64,000 nt of DNA from Vicinamibacteria bacterium (lineage in GTDB: Bacteria; Acidobacteriota; Vicinamibacteria; Marinacidobacterales; Marinacidobacteraceae), in NCBI GenBank assembly GCA_963555995.3, contig OY821641.1, positions 800,001 to 864,000 of the forward strand. Reading direction: 5' to 3'. Below, in pieces: positions 9,940 through 62,074 of the stretch. The position numbers and the translations under genes are program-made. The first letter of the stretch is position 1. The number at the start of each line of letters is the position of its first letter. A model generated the notes under the pieces. The model worked only from the letters and a program-made list of their open reading frames with translations, was not told where the DNA came from and did not search any database.

Positions 9940-9996
9940 CGGCCGGATGCTAGCGGGTAAGGATGGACGCAACCCGCTCTCATGACGGGTACGGCC

Positions 9997-10155
9997 TGGA
10001 ACGCCGGCTTCAGCCGGCACAGCCCGCCGAAGGCGGGCGGCGGGACGGACCCTCGTTCGCCGGGATGGCTCGGCTGCGCGCGCCAATGCACTCGGGTTGG
10101 CGACGAACCGCCCGCGGCCCTGCGGGCCGCTGTGCCGGCTGAAGCCGGCGTTCCT
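9997..10155. repeat. REPIN-like doublet (inverted REP pair, about 160 bp)
   Basis: GGAACGCCGGCTTCAGCCGGCAC ... GTGCCGGCTGAAGCCGGCGTTCC; reverse-complement homologue of 25233-25394. Confidence 0.85.
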
Positions 10156-10279
10156 GGCCGGCAGCGCCAGCACGGCCCGGATGGCCGGTCGCCATCCAAC
10201 CGGCCGGCCGGTTCCCCCGTGCTACCTTTCTGGAACCCTGCCCAGAGCGTCGGAGAGCCTTGTATCCGTGTCCGCGATA

Positions 10280-12899: not shown

Positions 12900-13949
12900 T
12901 CAAGAACCCCGCCGCGGGACCGGCGGCAGTCCGCGGGTCGCGGTCCGGAACAGGAACCTCAGGGCCCGGTCGCGGCGGGCCGCGACGCTGGTGACGGCGA
13001 CGACGGCGCCCACGCTGAACCGCGACAGCCGGATCCTCCGCCCCTGCCGGAAGGACGGGGTCCGGTGGATACGCCGCAGCGCGAGCACGGCCAGCCCGAC
13101 GGCCCACAGGAGATGCCGCCGGATCCCGGCTTCGCGCCTCGGAATCAGCAGGATGAACCGGAGCGCGTTCGAGAGGTGGCCGCGGGTGATCGCCACCAGT
13201 CGGGAGAGCCCCTCGTCGAATCCCGGCCCGGCCCGGCCCGCGGCAAGGGAGGCGAGGTCGAAACCGGCGGCGCGGAACACGTCCTCGGGGAGCCAGCAGG
13301 CGCCGTTGTCCCAGTCGTCCCAGAGGTCCTTGAGGATGTTGGCCATCTGGAGGCCCTGGGCGTGGGAGACCGCGAGGGCCGTCAACTCCTGCCGGCGGCC
13401 CTCGATCTCGGCGGAGTAGTCGCAGAACAGCTCGACGAGCATTTCGCCCACGACCCCGGCGACGAAATAGCAATACCGGTCGAGCTGAGCCAGGTCCTTC
13501 AGGCCGACGGAGCCCGGGTCCCGCTGGAACTCCGCCATGCCCCGAGACATCACCCGGACGCAGCGTTCGACGGCGGCTCGCTGCGGGGCGCGAAGCCCCG
13601 CGGTCACGCGCAGGATGCGGCTCGCGCCGCGGGCGAGTTCCCGCTCCGGTTCCGGCGTCGCCGGGGTCAGCGCCGCCGCCAGCTCGCGGCCGAAGGATGC
13701 GGCGTCCCGGCGACCGGCGACGACCTCGGTCAGGCGTTCCCAGAACACCCGCTTCTGCGCCGGCGACAGCCCGGGTTCGTCTTCGATGGTGTCGGTGAGG
13801 CGGCACAGCAGATAGGCGTTGCCGACCACCGGCCGGAGACGCTCCGGGAGGGCGGGGATCGTGAGGGCGTAGGTGCGCGAGACGGCCTGGAGGATCCTCG
13901 CCTGGTAGGCGAGATCGCCGCCGCTCCCGCTGCCGGACGACGCGCTCAT
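12900..13949 (-). CDS. squalene/phytoene synthase family protein (copy 2)
   Basis: VSRTYALTI, YLLCRLTDTIED, YCYFVAGVVG, GLQMANILKD, CWLP. Confidence 0.9.
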   Translation of the reverse strand: MSASSGSGSGGDLAYQARILQAVSRTYALTIPALPERLRPVVGNAYLLCRLTDTIEDEPGLSPAQKRVFWERLTEVVAGRRDAASFGRELAAALTPATPEPERELARGASRILRVTAGLRAPQRAAVERCVRVMSRGMAEFQRDPGSVGLKDLAQLDRYCYFVAGVVGEMLVELFCDYSAEIEGRRQELTALAVSHAQGLQMANILKDLWDDWDNGACWLPEDVFRAAGFDLASLAAGRAGPGFDEGLSRLVAITRGHLSNALRFILLIPRREAGIRRHLLWAVGLAVLALRRIHRTPSFRQGRRIRLSRFSVGAVVAVTSVAARRDRALRFLFRTATRGLPPVPRRGS

Positions 13950-14992
13950 CGTGCTCCCGACGGCCGCGGGAGGCCGCGGGCGACCAGCCGGAAGAGGAGC
14001 CGGAGAGCCGGATCCCAGCGGGCGAAGACGCTGGTGACCACCACGACCGCCCAGACGCTGCGGCGGGACACCTTGACTTCGGTTCCGCTCGTGAACCCCG
14101 GTGTCCGGCGGATGCGCCGCAGGGTGAGCATCGCCAGCCCCAGGGGCCACAGGCAGAACCGCCGGATGCCGGTCTCGCGGGACGGAATGAGCAACGTGTA
14201 GCGGAGCGCCGCCTCGAGATGCCGGCGGGTGACGGCGACGAGCTCGAGGAGGCCCGCGGCGAACGCCGGATCGGTCCTTCCGGCGGGAAGCGCGTGGAGG
14301 TCGAGACCCGCCGCGCGGAAGACGTCCCGCGGCAGCCAGCAGGCGCCGCGGCGGTGGTCCTCCCAGACATCCTTGAGGACGTTGACCATCTGGAGCCCCT
14401 GGCCGAAGGGAACCGACAGCGCGAGCAGGTCCGCGCGCCGCTGGCGCATCTCGGCGGAGTACTCGCAGAAGAACGCGGTGAGCGCTTCTCCCACCACCCC
14501 CGCGACGTGGTAGCAGTAGCGGTTCAGGTGCTCGAGGTCGTCGAGGCCGTGGATGGTGGCGCCGCGCTGAAACTCCACCATGCCGCGCGTCATGATGCGG
14601 ACGCAGCGCCGGATCGCCGCGCGCTGCGCGTCGCTGAAGCGGGCGGTGACGCCGAGCACCCGTCCCGCGCCCGCGATCAGGTCGCGTTCGCTCGCGGTGG
14701 CGGCGGTCAGGCGCGCTCCCAGGTCGCGGGAGAAGACATCGGGGTCACCCCCGCCCGCGACCAGCTCGACGAGGCGGTCCGAGAAGGTCTCCTTCTCGTC
14801 CGCCGCGAGGGCCGGCTCGTCCTCGATGGTGTCGGCGATGCGGCACAGGAGGTAAAGGTTCCCGGTAACGTCCGACAGGTCTCCGGGCAGGGGACGGATG
14901 GTGAGCGCGAACGTCCGCGCCACCCCTTCCAGGATGCGCCGCTGATAGGCGAGATCGTCGTCCACCGGCGGGCGTGGGGGGTCTCTGGTCAT
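13946..14992 (-). CDS. squalene/phytoene synthase family protein (copy 1)
   Basis: VARTFALTI, YLLCRIADTIED, YCYHVAGVVG, FGQGLQMVNVLKD, GIRRFCLW. Confidence 0.9.
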   Translation of the reverse strand: MTRDPPRPPVDDDLAYQRRILEGVARTFALTIRPLPGDLSDVTGNLYLLCRIADTIEDEPALAADEKETFSDRLVELVAGGGDPDVFSRDLGARLTAATASERDLIAGAGRVLGVTARFSDAQRAAIRRCVRIMTRGMVEFQRGATIHGLDDLEHLNRYCYHVAGVVGEALTAFFCEYSAEMRQRRADLLALSVPFGQGLQMVNVLKDVWEDHRRGACWLPRDVFRAAGLDLHALPAGRTDPAFAAGLLELVAVTRRHLEAALRYTLLIPSRETGIRRFCLWPLGLAMLTLRRIRRTPGFTSGTEVKVSRRSVWAVVVVTSVFARWDPALRLLFRLVARGLPRPSGAR

Positions 14993-15139
14993 GGGGAAGG
15001 GGGGCACCGCGCTCTCCACGCGGGGCGCCAGGTGGCCCGGCATGGCCGGAGCGCGGCCCGAGGCAGGGCGCTTCGCCCGGGTCCCGGGCTGCCGGGCAGC
15101 CCCCGGGGTTCCGCCGCCGGCCTACAATTGCGAAGGCTA

Positions 15140-21055: not shown

Positions 21056-21067
21056 GGGCACGCCGGT

Positions 21068-21235
21068 TTGGAACGCCGGCTTCAGCCGGCACACCCCGCC
21101 GGAGGCGGGCGGCGGGAAGGACCTCATTCGCCGCGATGGCGCCGGGGGTCCCCTGTGGGTGCGCCCTGCAGGGACAGCTATGCGCCCTTCCGCTGCGCAC
21201 AGCGCAGCGGGTGCCGGCTGAAGCCGGCGTTCCAA
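21068..21235. repeat. REPIN-like doublet
   Basis: TTGGAACGCCGGCTTCAGCCGGCAC ... GTGCCGGCTGAAGCCGGCGTTCCAA with internal hairpins. Confidence 0.85.
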
Positions 21236-21333
21236 GCCGTTCCGCCGTCTCGTTCACCGGCGGCACGCAAAGTGGGGGAGGGAAGCTGGAGGTTCCCATA
21301 CGCTACCCGGCTTCACCTGTCCGGAGATTCCGC

Positions 21334-24282: not shown

Positions 24283-25112
24283 GCATCATCCGTCGGAGTC
24301 CCACCAGCCGGCAGAGCGACGCTGCCATCCGCGCGGGTTCCGCGCTCCCGCGCGGGTGCCGGCTGAAGCCGGCGTTCCAAACCGGCGTCGGCCAGCACCG
24401 CCGCGGTGCGGTGGGGGCGTGCTGCCGCGTCCAGAGCCCGGATGGAGGCGGCGAGGCGGGGCAGGTCTTCGGGGCGGTCCACGTCCCAGTGGCCGGCGAG
24501 TTCGCTGAACCCCAGGCCGGCGCGCCGGGCCGCTTGGGAGGTGGCCTCGCGGACGGCCCCGGTGCCCCACGGAATGCCGGCGAACAGGGATTCGACCGCC
24601 GCCGGCGGGGCCCGGTCGAGCGCGAGGCCGATCAGGACGTAGCCGCCGTCCTCGGCGGGGGCGAGGAGCGCGTCCCGGTCCGCGAGGCCGGAGAACGCGG
24701 CCTCCACCAGCGGCAGCGGGAGCAGGGGAGCGTCGGAGCCGATGATGGCGAGGCGTGCGGCTCCGTCCCGCCGCGCCTCCCGGGCGGCGCGGGCGAGCCG
24801 CTCGCCGAGGTCCCCGGGACCCTGGCTGGTGACGGTCCAGCCCTTCGGGATCTCCAGGGCTCCGGCCGGGAACCGGCCGTCGTGACGGACTTCCAGCGAG
24901 AGCGGCGGGGCTTCTTGGGCGGCGGCGCCCAAGGTGTGATCCAGCCGTTCGAGAAGGTCTTCGGTCATCGCCCGCTGGAGCGATGCCGCCTGGTCCGGCG
25001 TGAGGGGGGGGATGAGCCGGGTCTTGGCGGCGCCGGGAACGGGGATCCGCGTGAAGACGGAGAGGCGGCGCGGAGAGGTGGGACCGGCCGGGATGCCGGG
25101 CGTGTTCGTCAT
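24279..25112 (-). CDS. TIGR04282/DUF2064 nucleotidyltransferase/glycosyltransferase-like protein
   Basis: PGAAKTRL, QGPGDLGERL, IIGSDAP, PAEDGGYVLIG, GIPWGT, WDVDRPEDL. Confidence 0.88.
   Translation of the reverse strand: MTNTPGIPAGPTSPRRLSVFTRIPVPGAAKTRLIPPLTPDQAASLQRAMTEDLLERLDHTLGAAAQEAPPLSLEVRHDGRFPAGALEIPKGWTVTSQGPGDLGERLARAAREARRDGAARLAIIGSDAPLLPLPLVEAAFSGLADRDALLAPAEDGGYVLIGLALDRAPPAAVESLFAGIPWGTGAVREATSQAARRAGLGFSELAGHWDVDRPEDLPRLAASIRALDAAARPHRTAAVLADAGLERRLQPAPARERGTRADGSVALPAGGTPTDDA
24330..24380. repeat. REP copy inside the 3' end of the DUF2064 ORF
   Basis: GTGCCGGCTGAAGCCGGCGTTCCAA; translated as LERRLQPA. Confidence 0.75.
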
Positions 25113-25232
25113 GGCTGGGCGCCTCAAGCCGTACGCGGCGTGGCCGTGGTGGGGTTGCGCCGCCCGCCGCGCACCAGTGGCTGTGGAAATGCAGTCCTGC
25201 GGGTTGGCCAACAGCCGTGATGGCGCTGCCGT

Positions 25233-25394
25233 CTTGGAACGCCGGCTTCAGCCGGCACAGCGGCCCGCAGGGCCGCGGGCGGTGCGTCGCTACCCCGGAT
25301 GCGTTGGCGCGGGCAGGCTGGCCATCCGGGCGGATGGGGTCCGTCGCGGCGCCCGCCTTCGGCGGGCTGTGCCGGCTGAAGCCGGCGTTCCAAG
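25233..25394. repeat. REPIN-like doublet
   Basis: Inverted REP pair; internal hairpins GCGGCCC-GCA-GGGCCGC and GCCCGCC-TTC-GGCGGGC. Confidence 0.85.
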
Positions 25395-25398
25395 CCGT

Positions 25399-29426: not shown

Positions 29427-29621
29427 GGCGAGATCTCGGAAGGGCGGAATGCTACCGCCGCATCCCATCCCGCTCGCGCGGCGGAGTGCGGACGCCCCGC
29501 GGGGAAGACGTGGGGAATCGCCTCTAGCCGGCGCCGGTCACGCTCGACCGGCGCTCCGCCCCTGTGCGGAGGGGCCGCGAGAGTGGCCGGCGAAGCGCCG
29601 GGCGCCGGCCTGCGGCCAGCG

Positions 29622-29648
29622 CGTGCCGGCCTGGAGGCCGGCGTTCCC
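29622..29648. repeat. REP variant
   Basis: GTGCCGGCCTGGAGGCCGGCGTTCC. Confidence 0.6.
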
Positions 29649-29670
29649 GAGGAGCCTGCGGCGCAGGCTC

Positions 29671-39973: not shown

Positions 39974-40024
39974 CTACGGGGTATTCCCGGAGAGGGAGCC
40001 ATCACGCGGATCAGCGCCGCGCCG

Positions 40025-40071
40025 TGCGCAGCGCTCCGCGCAGCGCGTGCCGGTCTGAAGACCGGCGCTCC
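40025..40071. repeat. REP variant plus accessory hairpin
   Basis: GCGC-TCC-GCGC...GTGCCGGTCTGAAGACCGGCGCTCC. Confidence 0.7.
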
Positions 40072-40143
40072 CGAGGCCCGCTACAATCCGAAACATCGGG
40101 TGATCGAGGGTGCCGCTCCACCGGCGCCGGCCCGGTGTCCGGA

Positions 40144-41763: not shown

Positions 41764-41770
41764 CCCGCTA

Positions 41771-41951
41771 ACAGCCTGTGGTGAAACCCACGTGAGCGCC
41801 GAGACGGGCGAGGCGCCCGGCTGACAAGGCGCGTGAGGGAGGAATACCCGGTGTATTCCGACCGAAACGCAACGCAGAGCGCCTCGTAGAGGCGCGGTTC
41901 AGCGGGGATGCATCGCCCGTCGAACGCCGCGTGGGTTTTGCCACAGGCTGT
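41771..41951 (+). mobile_element. 181-bp MITE-like structured element, copy A
   Basis: TIR ACAGCCTGTGG/CCACAGGCTGT flanked by TA; homologous to copies at 47671, 52339, 61649 and 61715. Confidence 0.85.
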
Positions 41952-42259
41952 TAACGGGCGGCGGCCTTGTCGAGGCGCCGCCCCAGGTGCTCCTCGATCG
42001 CCGAACAGGGGACGAACATCGGCTTCTCGTCCACTTCGATGTGGACGGCGCAGACCCCCGGGGTCTCGCTCGACACCTCGTAGGTCCCGGAGAAGGTCCC
42101 GAGCGGGGTCGGGAGCGAGAACTCTCCGAACCCGGGACCCTCGTCACCGCTGACCGTGCCCCCGAAGCGGGCGAAATCGGCCCGCAGCGCCTCGAGGAGA
42201 CTGGAGACCTCGGCCCGCAGGCTGAAGTCGAACTGGCAGGCGGACACCGCGCAGTCCAC
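41951..42259 (-). CDS. small hypothetical protein
   Basis: Protein-like sequence (GGTVSGDE...FSGTYEV...EKPMFVPCSAIE); follows the M20 gene directly; stop at the MITE end. Confidence 0.6.
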   Translation of the reverse strand: MDCAVSACQFDFSLRAEVSSLLEALRADFARFGGTVSGDEGPGFGEFSLPTPLGTFSGTYEVSSETPGVCAVHIEVDEKPMFVPCSAIEEHLGRRLDKAAAR

Positions 42260-47670: not shown

Positions 47671-47851
47671 ACAGCCTGTGGATAAAGTGACGTGAGCACC
47701 GAGAACGCCGAGGCGCCCGGCTGACAAGGCGCGTGAGGGAGGAATACCGAGTGTATTCCGACCGAAACGCAACGCAGAGCGCCTCGTAGAGGCGCGGTTC
47801 AGGCGGGATGCATCGGCGTTCGAATGCCGCGTGACTTTGTCCACAGGCTGT
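47671..47851 (+). mobile_element. 181-bp MITE-like structured element, copy B
   Basis: Same TIR and TA flanks; 8 bp from the lactate permease start codon, in a divergent promoter region. Confidence 0.85.
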
Positions 47852-49233: not shown

Positions 49234-49282
49234 GCGGTCGTTGCCGGCCGTACACGCCGTGAGGGCGGGTGGGGTTGCGCCG

Positions 49283-49332
49283 TGCGCATCGCGGAGCGAC
49301 GCGCGTGCCGGTCTGGAGACCGGCGTTCCAAG
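49283..49332. repeat. REP variant between convergent mtaB and nrdJ
   Basis: TCGC-GGA-GCGA...GTGCCGGTCTGGAGACCGGCGTTCCAAG. Confidence 0.7.
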
Positions 49333-49338
49333 CCGTTC

Positions 49339-52338: not shown

Positions 52339-52518
52339 GCAGCCTGTGGCAAAACCCCCGCGGCATTCGACGGGCGATGCATCCCGGCTGAACCGCGCCT
52401 CTACGAGGCGCTCTGCGTTGCGTTTCGGTCGAATACACTCGGTTTTCCTCCCTCACGCGCCTTGTCAGCCGGGCGCCTCGCCCGTCTCGGTGCTCACGTG
52501 GGTTTCACCACAGGTTGT
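52339..52518 (-). mobile_element. MITE-like structured element, copy C (inverted)
   Basis: Reverse complement of copy A with a few substitutions; TA flanks. Confidence 0.85.
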
Positions 52519-54686
52519 TAGTTGTTGTTCGGGCGTCGGCTGCCGCGGCTTCCCCCACTGCCGCCGCCGCCACGACTTACGGCGGCGCCGCCGCCGCCAC
52601 CGCCACCGCGGCTGACCGCGCTGCCGCCGCCGCTGGTACTCGACCCGCCACCCCGGCTGGCCGAAGCTCCGCTACTGCCGCCGAAACGGGAGAAACCGCT
52701 TGGCCGGCTTCGGGAACCCGCGCTCGGCCGGCTTCGCGAGCCCGCGCTCGGGCGGCTCCGCGAGCCCGCGCTCGGGCGGCTGCGGGAGCCCGCGCTGGGC
52801 CGGCTGCGGGAGGCGCCGCTGGGCCGGCTGCGGGAAGCGCCGCTGGGCCGGCTCCGGGAAGCCCCGCTGGGCCGGGCTCGGGAAGCCCCGCTGGGCCGGG
52901 CTCGGGAAGTTCCCGAGCGTCCGGTGGAAGTCGCCCCACTCCTGGGAGAGGCGGGCCGCACCGAGGAAGGCCGTCTGGCGCCGCTGTCGCCCGACCGTCC
53001 GCTGGCGCGCGGCCTGGGAGAGGTGGCGGGGCGATTCCCGGTCGTGGCGCGGCCGCGATTGGCCGACGGCCGTCCGGTTCGGCGTCCTGCCGTCGCCCGA
53101 CTGCTACCGGTAGCCCGGCGCGCGGCTGCCCGGGACCGGTCCGTTTCCGCGCTGCCGGCGCTCCCGTCCCGTCCTGCGACACCGCGGGACAGGATGGCGC
53201 GATCCCTTTCCGTCGCGTAGGACGACCGCGTACTGCGCGCGCGCGCGGCGCTCGTGGGAACGGCCACCCGCTGCGCCCGGGAAGTGCTGCGGGTGGAGCC
53301 GGCCGCGGCCCGGCGTGCGGTTGTCGGGGCTCGCGAGTTGGAGAGCCGCCGGGTGGTGGCCTTCGCCGACCGGGTCATGGCGGTTTCTCCGATCGCGCGT
53401 TGACGCAGACCGCGATCCAGTACCGCGCCTCCGGAAAGGACCTGGGCGTTTTCGACGTTGCGCAGGGTGGACGCCGCCAACCGGTTGCGCGAGGCGGGAC
53501 GCCCGATGGCGTCTCTACTGGTGAAACTCCACGCCTGCCGGTTCACGGACCCGCGTGGTACGGCTTTCCCGAGGACCTGTCCCCGACGGATTCGAGGGCG
53601 GTTTGCGTAGTACTGGTCACCCCAGCCGTAAGGACCGCCGTACCATCCGTGGAACGGATACACCGCATAGCCGTAGTAGCCGAGAGGAGACCAGCCGACC
53701 CAGTCGTATCCGTAGCTCCAGGAGACCCAGCCCGGGCCCCACACGGAACCCGGCAGCCAGTACCAGCCAAGGGGGCCGTGTCCCCACCGGCCGTAGTGAT
53801 ACGGAGCCCAACCCCAGGGGTCGTAGGAGATCCAGGTGATGCCGAACGGCGTGTGCGCCCATCGTCCGAGCCGGTAAGGCGCCCAGCCGGCGGTAACTGT
53901 CGGATACCAGACCCATCCCAGATGGACATCGTGGTGCCAGCGGCCATGTCCCTCGAGATCGGGAGCGTGCTCCCTGACTTCCTCGGGAAGTTCGTCGTAG
54001 TGCGTCTCCGCAGTGGTGACGAAGCGCCGCTGACGATCTTCGGCCCAGGCGAAGAAGCTGTCGTTACCAAGGTACTCCTCGGGCGGGGCCGGCGCCGTGC
54101 CTTCGGAAGCGACGGTCCGCTGACCGGACCCCACCAGCACCGAGCCCGACTCGGTGGATACGGTCGCGATGCCCGAGTAGACGACGAACTGCACCGTGCG
54201 GCCGTCTTCCAGAAGATCCGTTCGGTACTTACCCTCGCCCTGAGGGGAGAAGGTGCCGCCCGGTGTTTCCACGACCACGTCGGCATCGCCGCCGATCCAC
54301 ACGATGAGACTCCCGGTCCAGAACCCGAGCCGGTGCGGGCTGTCCCCTTCCACGTAGTCCAGCTTGGTTGCCTGGTCCATCCATGCCGTGACCCGGCCCG
54401 CGAAGCGCAGTTCGACCTGCCCGGGTTCCCGGGTCCAGATGCGGTCGCCGGGAAGGAAGGGGCTGCCCCTTTCCGCTTCGTGGGCGCCGAAATCGTCCGC
54501 CCGCTGGTGCCAGACATCGCCGTCGACGACGCTGAGATTCCCGTAGGTGTAGGACCGCCCGGTTTCCTCGTCGGACTGCGCGAGCGCCGCCGCGGAGTGG
54601 CCCAGGACGAGCAGCAGGCTCAGGATGCCTGCGTGCCGGAGGACCTTTTTTGGCCTTGGGTTTCGCCTGTTCGCTCTTTCGTGCAT
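52518..54686 (-). CDS. secreted FecR-like plus DUF6600-like protein with long Arg/Ser/Gly-rich disordered tail
   Basis: GGAGG RBS; signal peptide; PFLPGDRIWT (FecR-like); GWAPYRLGRW...PWGWAPYHYGRW...WGPGWVSW...VGWSPL. Confidence 0.82.
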   Translation of the reverse strand: MHERANRRNPRPKKVLRHAGILSLLLVLGHSAAALAQSDEETGRSYTYGNLSVVDGDVWHQRADDFGAHEAERGSPFLPGDRIWTREPGQVELRFAGRVTAWMDQATKLDYVEGDSPHRLGFWTGSLIVWIGGDADVVVETPGGTFSPQGEGKYRTDLLEDGRTVQFVVYSGIATVSTESGSVLVGSGQRTVASEGTAPAPPEEYLGNDSFFAWAEDRQRRFVTTAETHYDELPEEVREHAPDLEGHGRWHHDVHLGWVWYPTVTAGWAPYRLGRWAHTPFGITWISYDPWGWAPYHYGRWGHGPLGWYWLPGSVWGPGWVSWSYGYDWVGWSPLGYYGYAVYPFHGWYGGPYGWGDQYYANRPRIRRGQVLGKAVPRGSVNRQAWSFTSRDAIGRPASRNRLAASTLRNVENAQVLSGGAVLDRGLRQRAIGETAMTRSAKATTRRLSNSRAPTTARRAAAGSTRSTSRAQRVAVPTSAARARSTRSSYATERDRAILSRGVAGRDGSAGSAETDRSRAAARRATGSSRATAGRRTGRPSANRGRATTGNRPATSPRPRASGRSGDSGARRPSSVRPASPRSGATSTGRSGTSRARPSGASRARPSGASRSRPSGASRSRPSGASRSRPSAGSRSRPSAGSRSRPSAGSRSRPSAGSRSRPSGFSRFGGSSGASASRGGGSSTSGGGSAVSRGGGGGGGAAVSRGGGGSGGSRGSRRPNNN
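52692..52907 (-). repeat. 9 x 24-bp coding tandem repeat, S-R-(A/S)-R-P-S-(GA/AG/GF)
   Basis: Visible directly in both DNA and protein. Confidence 0.9.
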
Positions 54687-54721
54687 GGGCCACCTCCCCG
54701 AGGCTGCCACTTCCTGATGCC

Positions 54722-54736
54722 GCAATCCCTATGCCA
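54722..54736 (-). promoter_or_regulatory. sigma-54 (-24/-12) promoter
   Basis: TGGCATAGGGATTGC (GG-N10-GC) 35 bp upstream of the ATG at 54686. Confidence 0.75.
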
Positions 54737-57613: not shown

Positions 57614-59209
57614 TCAGATTCCGCTCGCCAGGGCGGCCGCCGCCGCTTCGGCCTCGGCCTTGCGTTTGCTGGGGCCGACCCCCCTTCCGAGGGCGCGGCG
57701 GCCCGCGAGCACTTCCATGACAAAGGTCTTTTCGTGCTCCGGGCCGCTCTCCGAGATGAGTCGGTACACGGGGAGGCGACCCTCTTTCTTCACGAGCGCC
57801 TCCTGCAGGGTCCCCTTCGGATTTTCGGTCGCGGCGACGGCCGTTGGGCTCTTCCCGGCCGCTCCTCGTCGTGGTCGGCTCCGCCTGCGGGCGGACCGGC
57901 GTTCGAGCCGTTCGAGAGCCCGCCGCGCGGCGTCCTTCTCGGCCTCCTTGAGGCCTCGCCCAACCCCGGTTTCGACGAGTCCATCGGCCAGCCGCAGGGT
58001 CACGGACACCGTCCCGTCGCTCCGCGAGCTGCGCGGTCCGCGTTTGGGCTCGTACCTGGGAGTCTCCTTGCCCGCCTGGGCGAGGCGGTTCTGGAGCAGC
58101 GTCTTGGGGTCGAGGAGTTCCAGGTCGGGATCCCGGAGCTCCTCGAGGGCGGTTGCGAACGGCCGGCCCAGGGCCCGGCGGGCGGCCTCCAGGCGGCCGT
58201 CCAGGTAGAGCGCCCCCATCACGGCCTCCGCGGTGGCCGCGGCGTCGTCCGCGTCCCCGAGTGACCAGTGTTCGTTCAGCGTGCGGGTGAACTCCCGGCT
58301 TTCGAGCCGCATCCGGGCGAGGGTCATCCTCCCCTCGTCCCACTCGGGGAATTGGTCATGAAGCGCCTCGGCCAGCACCAGGTGAAGGACATCCCGCCCG
58401 AGGAAGCGCAGTGCGGGCCGGTTCACCGATCGGGCCGCTCCCGGAGGTCTCGGGGACCCGAGGGACGGGCGCCGCCGCCCCCGCGTTCGCCGCTTTCTGC
58501 CCCGGCGGTTCCTGGAGGCGCGTTCCCGGCCCGCGTCACCCGGGTCGAGCGCCGCGGCCAGGATTCCGGGATCGGCGAAGGTGTATCCGAGGGCGCGTTC
58601 GACCCTCTTGCGCAACAGGAGGAGACGGCGGGCGAACCGGATGCCGAGCGGGCCGATGGATCGCAGTCCGCTGCCGGCTCGACGGACCCATCCCGGAACG
58701 CCTTCCGGCGGCTTCAGCCGGAGCCGCTGCAGCTTCTGCCTGAAGGCCACGCCCAGGACGCCGCGCGCCGCCGGCATCCCGCCGTCGAGATAGGCGGCCC
58801 CGAGGACGGCTTCGAAGACGTTGGCGAGGATGCGGTCGGAAGATCGGACTTCTTCACCGGCGTTGCGCCCGCGGCCGACCCGAATGCCCTCGTCCAGCGA
58901 GAGGGCGCGGGCCGCCGCGGCCAGCGACTGGTTGCTCACCAGTTCCGACTTGGTCTCCTGCCGCCGTTGTCCGTCCCAGTTCGGCCGCTGGAAATGCATG
59001 GACTCGGTCACCACGAGTCCGAGCGCCGCGTCGCCGACGAATTCCAGCCTTTCGTAGTCCGCGACCGCGTGGTCGTTTCGATAGGAGCCGTGCGTCAGGG
59101 CTTCCTCGAGAAGCTCGAGGTCCTGGAAGCGGTACCCCAGATCCCGGGCGAACTCGAGGACCGGCCGGTGTTCGGATGCCGGCGCCCGCCGTCTTCGTCT
59201 GCGGGCCAT
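57614..59209 (-). CDS. rnc: ribonuclease III with two tandem RNase III domains and two dsRBDs
   Basis: Domain A: LGYRF..ALTHGS..YERLEFVGDA..ANVFEAVLGAAYLDGG. Domain B: LGYTF..ALRFLGRDVL..DEGRMT..AEAVMGALYLDG. dsRBDs: DPKTLLQ..KEAEKDAA and NPKGTLQE..GPEHEKTF..SKRKAEAEAA. Confidence 0.88.
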   Translation of the reverse strand: MARRRRRRAPASEHRPVLEFARDLGYRFQDLELLEEALTHGSYRNDHAVADYERLEFVGDAALGLVVTESMHFQRPNWDGQRRQETKSELVSNQSLAAAARALSLDEGIRVGRGRNAGEEVRSSDRILANVFEAVLGAAYLDGGMPAARGVLGVAFRQKLQRLRLKPPEGVPGWVRRAGSGLRSIGPLGIRFARRLLLLRKRVERALGYTFADPGILAAALDPGDAGRERASRNRRGRKRRTRGRRRPSLGSPRPPGAARSVNRPALRFLGRDVLHLVLAEALHDQFPEWDEGRMTLARMRLESREFTRTLNEHWSLGDADDAAATAEAVMGALYLDGRLEAARRALGRPFATALEELRDPDLELLDPKTLLQNRLAQAGKETPRYEPKRGPRSSRSDGTVSVTLRLADGLVETGVGRGLKEAEKDAARRALERLERRSARRRSRPRRGAAGKSPTAVAATENPKGTLQEALVKKEGRLPVYRLISESGPEHEKTFVMEVLAGRRALGRGVGPSKRKAEAEAAAAALASGI

Positions 59210-61648: not shown

Positions 61649-62013
61649 AGCAGCCTGTGGTGGAACCCCCGTGAGCGCCGAGAGCGGTGAGGCACCCCGC
61701 TGACGAGGCGCGCAACAGCCTGTGGTGGAACTCGCGTGAGCACCGAGAACGGCGAGGCGCCCGGCTGACAAGGCGCGTGAGGGAGGAATACCGGGCGTAT
61801 TCCGACCGAAGCGCAACGATGAGGACCGCGTAGCGGGCCGGTTCAGCCGGGATGCATCGCCGTTCGAATGCCGTGGGAGTTTCACTGCGGGCTGTTCAAG
61901 GAGGAATACCGAGTGTATTCCGACCGAAACGCAACGCCGAGCGCCGCACAGCGGCGGGTTCCGCGGGGATGCATCGCCGCTCGAACGCCGCGAGAGTTTT
62001 GCCACCGGTTGCT
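61649..62013 (+). mobile_element. MITE-like copy D (outer: 61649-61713 plus 61897-62013), interrupted by nested copy E
   Basis: The two halves sum to about 182 bp and pair with each other (GAGCGGTGA/TCGCCGCTC; CCCCGC/GCGGGG). Confidence 0.8.
61715..61895 (+). mobile_element. MITE-like copy E (complete, nested)
   Basis: ACAGCCTGTGG...GCGGGCTGT, 181 bp, full internal core. Confidence 0.82.
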
Positions 62014-62074
62014 GGCAGCCTGTCCCGGGCCCCCCCTTCGCTCTGGCGCGCCGTACACTCCAGGTTCGCCTCCC

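Follow-up and report, generated by a model that had tools for sequence, protein, structure and literature searches.

Copies of the element in the analysed region

The window, meaning the whole stretch of 64,000 nucleotides that was analysed, contains five copies (A to E) of a structured repeat, all located within 1-2 bases of the places given in the original prediction. Pairwise identity among copies A, B, C and E ranges from 84 to 95%. The features of these copies are as follows.

41768..41771, + strand: left target 4-mer of copy A, CTAA, identical to the empty site in relative G014
41772..41950, + strand: copy A, a 179-bp MITE, young (99% identity with a copy found elsewhere in the genome)
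41772..41786, + strand: left terminal inverted repeat of A, 15/15 identical to both ends of the partner insertion sequence (IS)
41825..41877, + strand: conserved core of A, with an AAG/A internal loop, an AAC bulge, tandem G·A pairs and a terminal hairpin
41879..41895, + strand: side hairpin of A, capped by a c(GTA)g triloop (loop bases 41886-41888)
41951..41954, + strand: right target 4-mer of A, TTAA, whose first base is complementary to the left flank rather than a repeat of it
47672..47850, + strand: copy B, 179 bp, with an exact TTAA duplication
52340..52517, - strand: copy C, 178 bp, with an exact non-palindromic duplication (CTAA on C's own strand)
61651..61711, + strand: 5' part of copy D, host of a nested insertion
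61716..61894, + strand: copy E, 179 bp, nested in the core of D
61899..62011, + strand: 3' part of copy D, the remainder of the host copy beyond E

The right 4-mer of copy A overlaps the stop codon of a minus-strand ORF (41951-42259), and copy B sits between divergent lactate permease and radical-SAM genes. Copy C is abutted by the stop codon of a minus-strand DUF6600 ORF (52518-54725), within which a 24-nt tandem repeat array occupies positions 52663-52926. Directly after copy D, positions 62016-62023 hold an 8-base stub of a further element end, which shares the 4-mer of D. No transposase family was found in a Pfam scan of the 52 ORFs delimited in the window by our own gene caller, in agreement with what had been proposed. 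The covarying words and the side-hairpin variants quoted in the original prediction are all found in the sequence. The motifs described there as nearly invariant are also present, except that copy C reads GGAAAAC in place of GGAATAC. The core of A reaches 36.5 bits with model R2, which was built without the copies of this genome. The side hairpin with its c(GNA)g triloop is confined to elements with CAGCC-type ends.

The window has other peculiarities. A second, REP-like family of GC-rich intergenic hairpin repeats is found at 9992-10160, 21064-21239, 24343-24388, 25230-25397, 29590-29652, 40014-40076 and 49272-49334; the genome has one Y1_Tnp match, at G000:C1:751513. Two squalene/phytoene synthase paralogues lie side by side at 12900-15043 (minus strand), with a DNA identity of about 71-73%. 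An RNase III-family gene (57614-59209, minus strand) is unusually long, at 531 aa, with its nuclease domain at residues 31-151 and its dsRNA-binding domain far out at 464-528.

A family of 179-bp elements with 4-bp target duplications

A profile made from four window copies gave 131 matches in the 3.8-Mb, 70% GC genome. Eighty of these are full length, and 75 of the 80 measure exactly 179 bp. Terminal inverted repeats of the kind that characterizes a MITE are present. An exact 4-bp duplication, mostly CTAG or TTAA, surrounds 37 of the 80 full-length copies (target type YTAR), while duplications of 2, 3 or 5-8 bp at the CAGCC...GGCTG boundaries were found in none of the 80. Comparison with relatives provides the empty sites. 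Site A is empty in all 13 relatives for which both flanks were found, and four of these alleles are clean and exactly 183 bp shorter. Copy B is absent at its position in 13 of 13 relatives' loci with both flanks; there the alleles differ by 182-183 bp against diverged flanks, and relative G001 carries an independent related insertion 40 bp away. The unit is therefore 179 bp plus a 4-bp duplication: the repeated element first described as 181 bp long is real, its length has to be corrected. A 181-bp unit with a TA duplication was considered because the inner flank bases pair. It was rejected as the primary event, since the IS described below makes exact non-palindromic 4-bp duplications and since target and inner bases are correlated.

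The element is present in all 15 genomes of the same genus and in 39 of the 61 genomes searched, G000 (the genome of the window) included, and near-identical elements occur in Ca. Marinacidobacterium and Acidobacteria records. A search of a plasmid collection gave no real match. Head-to-tail arrays with one common 4-mer occur in four places. The arrangement of E within D is repeated in three more places, four in all, at the same core position; this nesting may represent one event that spread later, since the four inner copies all belong to one subfamily. Ten copies carry an extra module of about 90 nt. Among the copies of relatives, a module of about 19 nt is seen at several different positions (L077, L078, L101, L104, L129, L146, L151, L154), and short internally deleted derivatives also exist. 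According to our own gene calls, none of 93 loci lies inside a predicted gene and 27 of the 93 overlap a predicted stop codon. No promoter- or terminator-like consensus was found in the element.

A probable IS1182-like partner with identical ends

A scan for orphan ends revealed three near-identical 1,515-bp IS copies in the same genome, which differ by one base each, in the flank. The following copy lies outside the window:

G000:C1:362858-364372: partner IS

Both ends of this IS equal the left end of the MITE over 15 of 15 bases, and its flanks (TTAA/TTAA, TTAG/TTAG and GTAA/GTAA) form a 4-bp duplication. The IS encodes a 475-aa protein with DUF772 and DDE_Tnp_1 domains, the best NCBIfam match of which is the IS1182 family (E = 1e-42). 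As the score of this transposase against NF033551 (146.2 bits) is below the cut-off of 270, the partner is named only 'IS1182-like'. A search for a related solved structure found none. At one of the IS sites, three of four DNA runs from one study contain an empty allele that skips 1,519 bp, i.e. 1,515 + 4, which indicates that the partner IS moved recently.

Twenty related IS loci were scored for their ends with a bonus for duplication. Under this scoring CAG-type ends were obtained at 16 of them and an exact duplication of 4 bp at 15; four automatic calls fell on other repeats. At three related IS loci a core match lies beside the IS end. At L241, L253 and L263, related IS copies are placed head to tail against a MITE end, with TTAA in common. 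The partner IS itself contains no core, and its interior shares nothing with the MITE core. A close transposase was found in only 3 of the 15 same-genus genomes (DUF772 in 5 of 15), against 15 of 15 for the MITE, and in the near-complete assemblies G009 and G014 neither the close-transposase nor the DUF772 query matched. No circle junction of the IS was seen in contigs, which drop rare forms, and the head-to-tail joint of the MITE in contigs corresponds to the known tandem arrays. At another locus (L193, G000:C1:2716900-2719300), an IS copy abuts a 201-aa ORF for which Pfam gave no match. Next comes a mosaic made up of a broken IS relative and a truncated transposase-like gene; the latter has a GTGTC-type end that resembles the second MITE end class.

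The proposal of a non-autonomous mobile element is thus supported by the target duplication, the empty sites and an IS with the same ends. To judge from those ends, the IS1182-like DDE transposase probably acts on the MITE in trans. It can be stated with considerable confidence that the 179-bp element is a genuine MITE with a probable live IS1182-like partner.

A core shared between unrelated shells

The core is not restricted to this family. Its exact pattern matches at least 118 stretches in records of Acidobacteriota, Myxococcota, Desulfobacterota and Gammaproteobacteria, and the ends around it differ, being of CAGCC type, GTGTC type, GTGGCC type or GGGTTCGC-type. Model R1 matches 38 of the 151 genomes of the phylum. 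In 24 thinned cores from several phyla, 94% of the cells pair and 15 of 35 pairs have changed on both sides; none of 500 shuffles reaches this pairing and slid controls give 28-40%, for a set from which 2 of 26 cores were left out for length and in which the structure was drawn by hand on the same sequences and the pattern fixed part of these sequences. The AAG/AAC loop is kept across phyla while the surrounding stems change. Five elements (L219, L225, L226, L227, L228) carry two opposite cores, one near the 5' end of each strand. One core match (L106) lies on a 3.6-kb low-coverage contig titled archaeon, which may be mis-binned.

The end of one of these shells equals curated IS630 ends at 15 of 16 bases, the MITE and the IS630 copies being from different genomes. 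The core sits inside unrelated ends, IS1182-type and IS630-type, and is therefore unlikely to be read by the transposase. Partners for the other end classes were also sought. The GTGTC-type MITE has six copies in the present genome, and the truncated gene behind a GTGTC-type end there has no Pfam match. IS630 was rejected as partner of the GTGTC-type MITEs, as the IS630 ends found do not match those of the same genomes. IS701 was found as a partner of other end classes in none of five genomes, and a plasmid search with the GGGTTCGC-type end returned no IS.

Four repeats of E. coli K-12 have in common with the core the loop C-AAG-GY...Y-AAC-GC-M-G between stems, with its AAG/A loop and AAC bulge. 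We take these repeats to be ERIC copies, even if the record has no such annotation. Six other E. coli pattern matches fail the stem filter. Model R2, built without ERIC, gives 24.8, 24.2 and 16.9 bits to three of the repeats and at most 8.7 bits to the six non-ERIC matches; it missed one of the four repeats, and the pattern used to preselect the loci had been fixed with sight of one ERIC copy. Model R1 gives 5.5 bits on ERIC, and neither R1 nor R2 returned anything when run over the whole E. coli genome. The kinship is suggestive, and the element is filed as ERIC-like in its core, not as ERIC.

A fold biased towards one strand

Copy A folds, as originally described, from end to end into a rod with a branched core, here a three-way junction. 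The z-score as RNA is -12.8 for the plus strand and -9.0 for the minus strand, and as DNA -9.4 and -7.6 respectively; none of 200 shuffles folds as well. In all 68 distinct copies the plus strand is the better-folding one under RNA as well as DNA parameters, with an RNA energy gap of 17 kcal/mol between strands. The 65 pairs in these 68 copies make 4,420 cells, composed of 3,939 Watson-Crick pairs, 311 G·T, 27 A·C and 143 others, and parsimony counts 78 changes from Watson-Crick to G·T, 19 from Watson-Crick to A·C and 39 double changes that exchange one Watson-Crick pair for a different one. The covariation claimed from the window thus holds over the full copy set. The excess of G·T over A·C marks a bias towards one strand, because mutation of double-stranded DNA should give both equally. 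Eighteen unpaired positions are invariant across the 68 copies. In the side hairpin, the c(GNA)g loop is found in 55 of the 68 copies and in 52 of 66 copies of relatives, N being any of the four bases; 13 of the 68 lack it, and most exceptions are c(ANA)g.

The G·T:A·C ratio is 15:12 for singleton variants and 26:5 for shared variants (Fisher p = 0.023, in copies that are related and recombining). A tree-based test of a filter at copying gave no difference between tips (58:15) and internal branches (19:3; p = 0.55), so that of the two tests the contrast of singleton and shared variants alone points to such a filter. The orientation of the element shows no tie with the direction of replication (44:49, on our own replichore calls and a weak skew), and the bias therefore follows the element's own strand and not the fork.

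Flank pairing and the meaning of covariation

The pairing of the rod extends beyond the element. At the two flank positions nearest the ends, the bases are complementary in 73 and 76 of 80 copies; the count drops to 52 and 50 of 80 at the next two positions and to 20-32 farther out. Where duplication and pairing are in conflict, pairing wins 22:5. Young copies mostly have exact palindromic duplications (22 of 31) and older ones do not. Two sites retain the trace of a change. At G000:81247, the target reads TCAG in six relatives and the right flank CTAG; two bases have changed, and the result is paired with the left flank. At G000:69279 the target GTAA has yielded TTGA. These are the two informative sites among nine further ones compared, the rest being too diverged or missing one flank. 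This pairing beyond the ends indicates that the flanks were rewritten to extend the rod. Such rewriting may proceed by arm-to-arm template switching, by conversion between copies or by carry-over at insertion; alternatively, the MITE may make a blunt 183-bp insertion or carry over flank bases from the donor.

These observations give substance to a rival explanation, in which an ordinary cut-and-paste MITE keeps its structure by mutation and repair alone (template switching, conversion among about 100 copies) and the core is a passenger of nested insertion or deletion. The better-folding strand would simply fold more often, G·T being tolerated and persisting while A·C is repaired. The observations on the flanks speak for it: their pairing near the ends, the prevalence of pairing over duplication, the two-base change at G000:81247 and the contrast between young and older copies. 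Slow repair also predicts G·T to be unbiased among singletons and biased among shared variants, nested insertions and inserted modules are common, and template switching is reported, in an excerpt of PMC8794818, to yield compensatory changes by mutation alone. Since it can do so, and since flanks become paired here, covariation alone is not proof of selection. Of the proposal that the internal structure is under selection, the strand-specific fold and the covariation stand; covariation as its proof is not established. Neutral repair should nevertheless erase unpaired motifs, and the 18 invariant unpaired positions are harder to explain by template switching. The same process accounts neither for an AAG/AAC loop kept across phyla with changing stems, nor for a c(GNA)g loop with a free middle base, nor for elements with one core per strand. 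We regard this explanation as unlikely, even if it survives best among the alternatives.

Single-stranded DNA or RNA

The fold could also be selected as RNA in a MITE moved by the same transposase, co-transcribed copies altering mRNA processing or decay in one orientation. Reported precedents for such a role are ERIC (RNase E) and the Correia elements (RNase III), and an excerpt of PMC2229807 describes an orientation-dependent action of ERIC on mRNA. G·U wobbles and tandem G·A pairs, both part of this element, are motifs typical of RNA; the strand gap of 17 kcal/mol, the overlap with stop codons and a non-random orientation to genes all agree with a role of this kind. The element sequence is also present in contigs of two RNA runs from sponge metagenomes. 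With flanks about 94% identical, these contigs come from relatives, and strand, ends and level are not readable from them. The orientation is nevertheless the opposite of what a benefit to the mRNA predicts, the folding strand being antisense in 41 cases and sense in 20 between co-directional genes (p = 0.01, on our own gene calls). Singleton variants have no G·U bias, promoter- or terminator-like sites are missing from the element, and an RNA fold cannot rewrite DNA flanks.

The side-hairpin loop is of a type stable in DNA. In the excerpt of PMC13037366, GNA is the only one of the 64 triloops to form a very stable DNA mini-hairpin, the RNA form of a related tetraloop is much weaker, and DNA mini-hairpins bind SSB poorly and occur at ssDNA origins and priming sites; the context tested there is GC-GNA-GC, whereas many copies of the element have TC-GNA-GA. 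The loop type, the antisense excess and the lack of a reverse transcriptase (0 matches to PF00078, RVT_1, in the 93%-complete genome) favour ssDNA over RNA. The same three points weigh against the RNA intermediate envisaged at first, and selection as RNA is judged improbable, somewhat more so than neutral repair. It is very improbable that the element is an independent structured RNA family, or else a SINE-like retroelement multiplied by reverse transcriptase: the rod-like fold, the invariant internal loops and the covariation across phyla would suit such a reading, yet the inverted ends are those of a DDE IS, the duplication is of 4 bp, insertion sites are lineage-specific, RVT_1 is lacking and Rfam returned nothing at gathering score for the element (generic hairpin matches far below the cut-off, and only two tRNAs in the window), so that the dispersed RNA family of the original prediction is disfavoured.

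Comparison with known systems

Structured MITEs are known, among them ERIC, RUP and Correia (excerpts of PMC2229807, PMC10969869, PMC2267715 and PMC11602168). ERIC (IRU/RU-1, an enterobacterial MITE) resembles the present element in its end-to-end rod, its TA-centred target, its intergenic location and the importance of orientation, and differs from it in size (127 against 179 bp), duplication (2-bp TA against 4 bp) and ends (its own against CAGCC), as far as described in the excerpt of PMC2229807. The bcr1 repeat of the Bacillus cereus group (about 155 bp) is likewise mobile, with a target duplication and a fold kept by compensatory changes, and on this precedent covariation in a structured MITE is nothing new in kind; bcr1 is instead a double-arm cruciform with a 5-bp duplication, and the excerpt of PMC3184786 reports no shared core or partner transposase for it. 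MITEs have been assigned to transposases by matching ends, as here, for RUP with IS630-Spn1 and IMU with ISSod9-like ends (excerpts of PMC2229807 and PMC3184786). Unlike in those cases, the partner is IS1182/IS5-like, shares a genome with the MITE and shows polymorphism in the population, and the MITE interior is unrelated to that of the IS. IS1182-family members such as IS1272 share the DUF772 and DDE domains of the partner; IS1272 makes no duplication and replaces target hairpins (excerpt of PMC5678879), whereas the partner IS duplicates 4 bp.

REP/REPIN with RAYT, and IS200/IS605 (HUH), rely on strand-specific imperfect hairpins read as ssDNA. They offer a possible working likeness, even if they are without IS-type inverted ends and duplications. 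DDE transposases, for their part, are known to act on double-stranded ends. A literature search covering few subscription journals found no paper on this element family or on a core common to MITEs with different ends (the census supplements of PMC11602168 may list sequences), and none on a folded single-strand route for DDE transposases.

Proposed model and significance

A functional fold of one strand as ssDNA is, from comparative sequence data, the best reading. The element would be a MITE with 4-bp duplications, likely mobilized by an IS1182-like DDE transposase and likely multiplying better when one strand folds as an ssDNA rod, to which a probability of roughly 0.55 is given. Replication or supercoiling would expose the plus strand, which would snap into the rod and pair both ends, and copies with an intact rod would be copied more often. 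The invariant AAG/AAC loop would be read by a host factor and not by the transposase. The same folding would let a polymerase copy one arm onto the other, which could produce part of the compensatory change and the flank pairing. A broader and rather doubtful proposal would make the core a portable ssDNA signal that a protein of the host's replication or repair machinery recognizes. MITEs belonging to unrelated DDE transposases (IS1182-like, IS630 and others), with ERIC among them, would carry this signal as cargo across phyla and gain from it a one-strand copy-out route to high copy number.

At issue is what brings bacterial MITEs, ERIC for example, to hundreds of copies and why a fold is kept in their interiors; the mode of movement of ERIC-type MITEs is named as a question for future work in the excerpt of PMC2229807. 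The present case combines a MITE, an intact and recently moved transposase with identical ends, together with a core whose features are concrete and open to mutation, namely the strand, G·T versus A·C, the AAG/AAC loop and the GNA triloop. It also warns against taking covariation in mobile inverted repeats as necessarily the mark of a functional RNA. If the fold acts as ssDNA, DDE transposition would have a single-strand side route.
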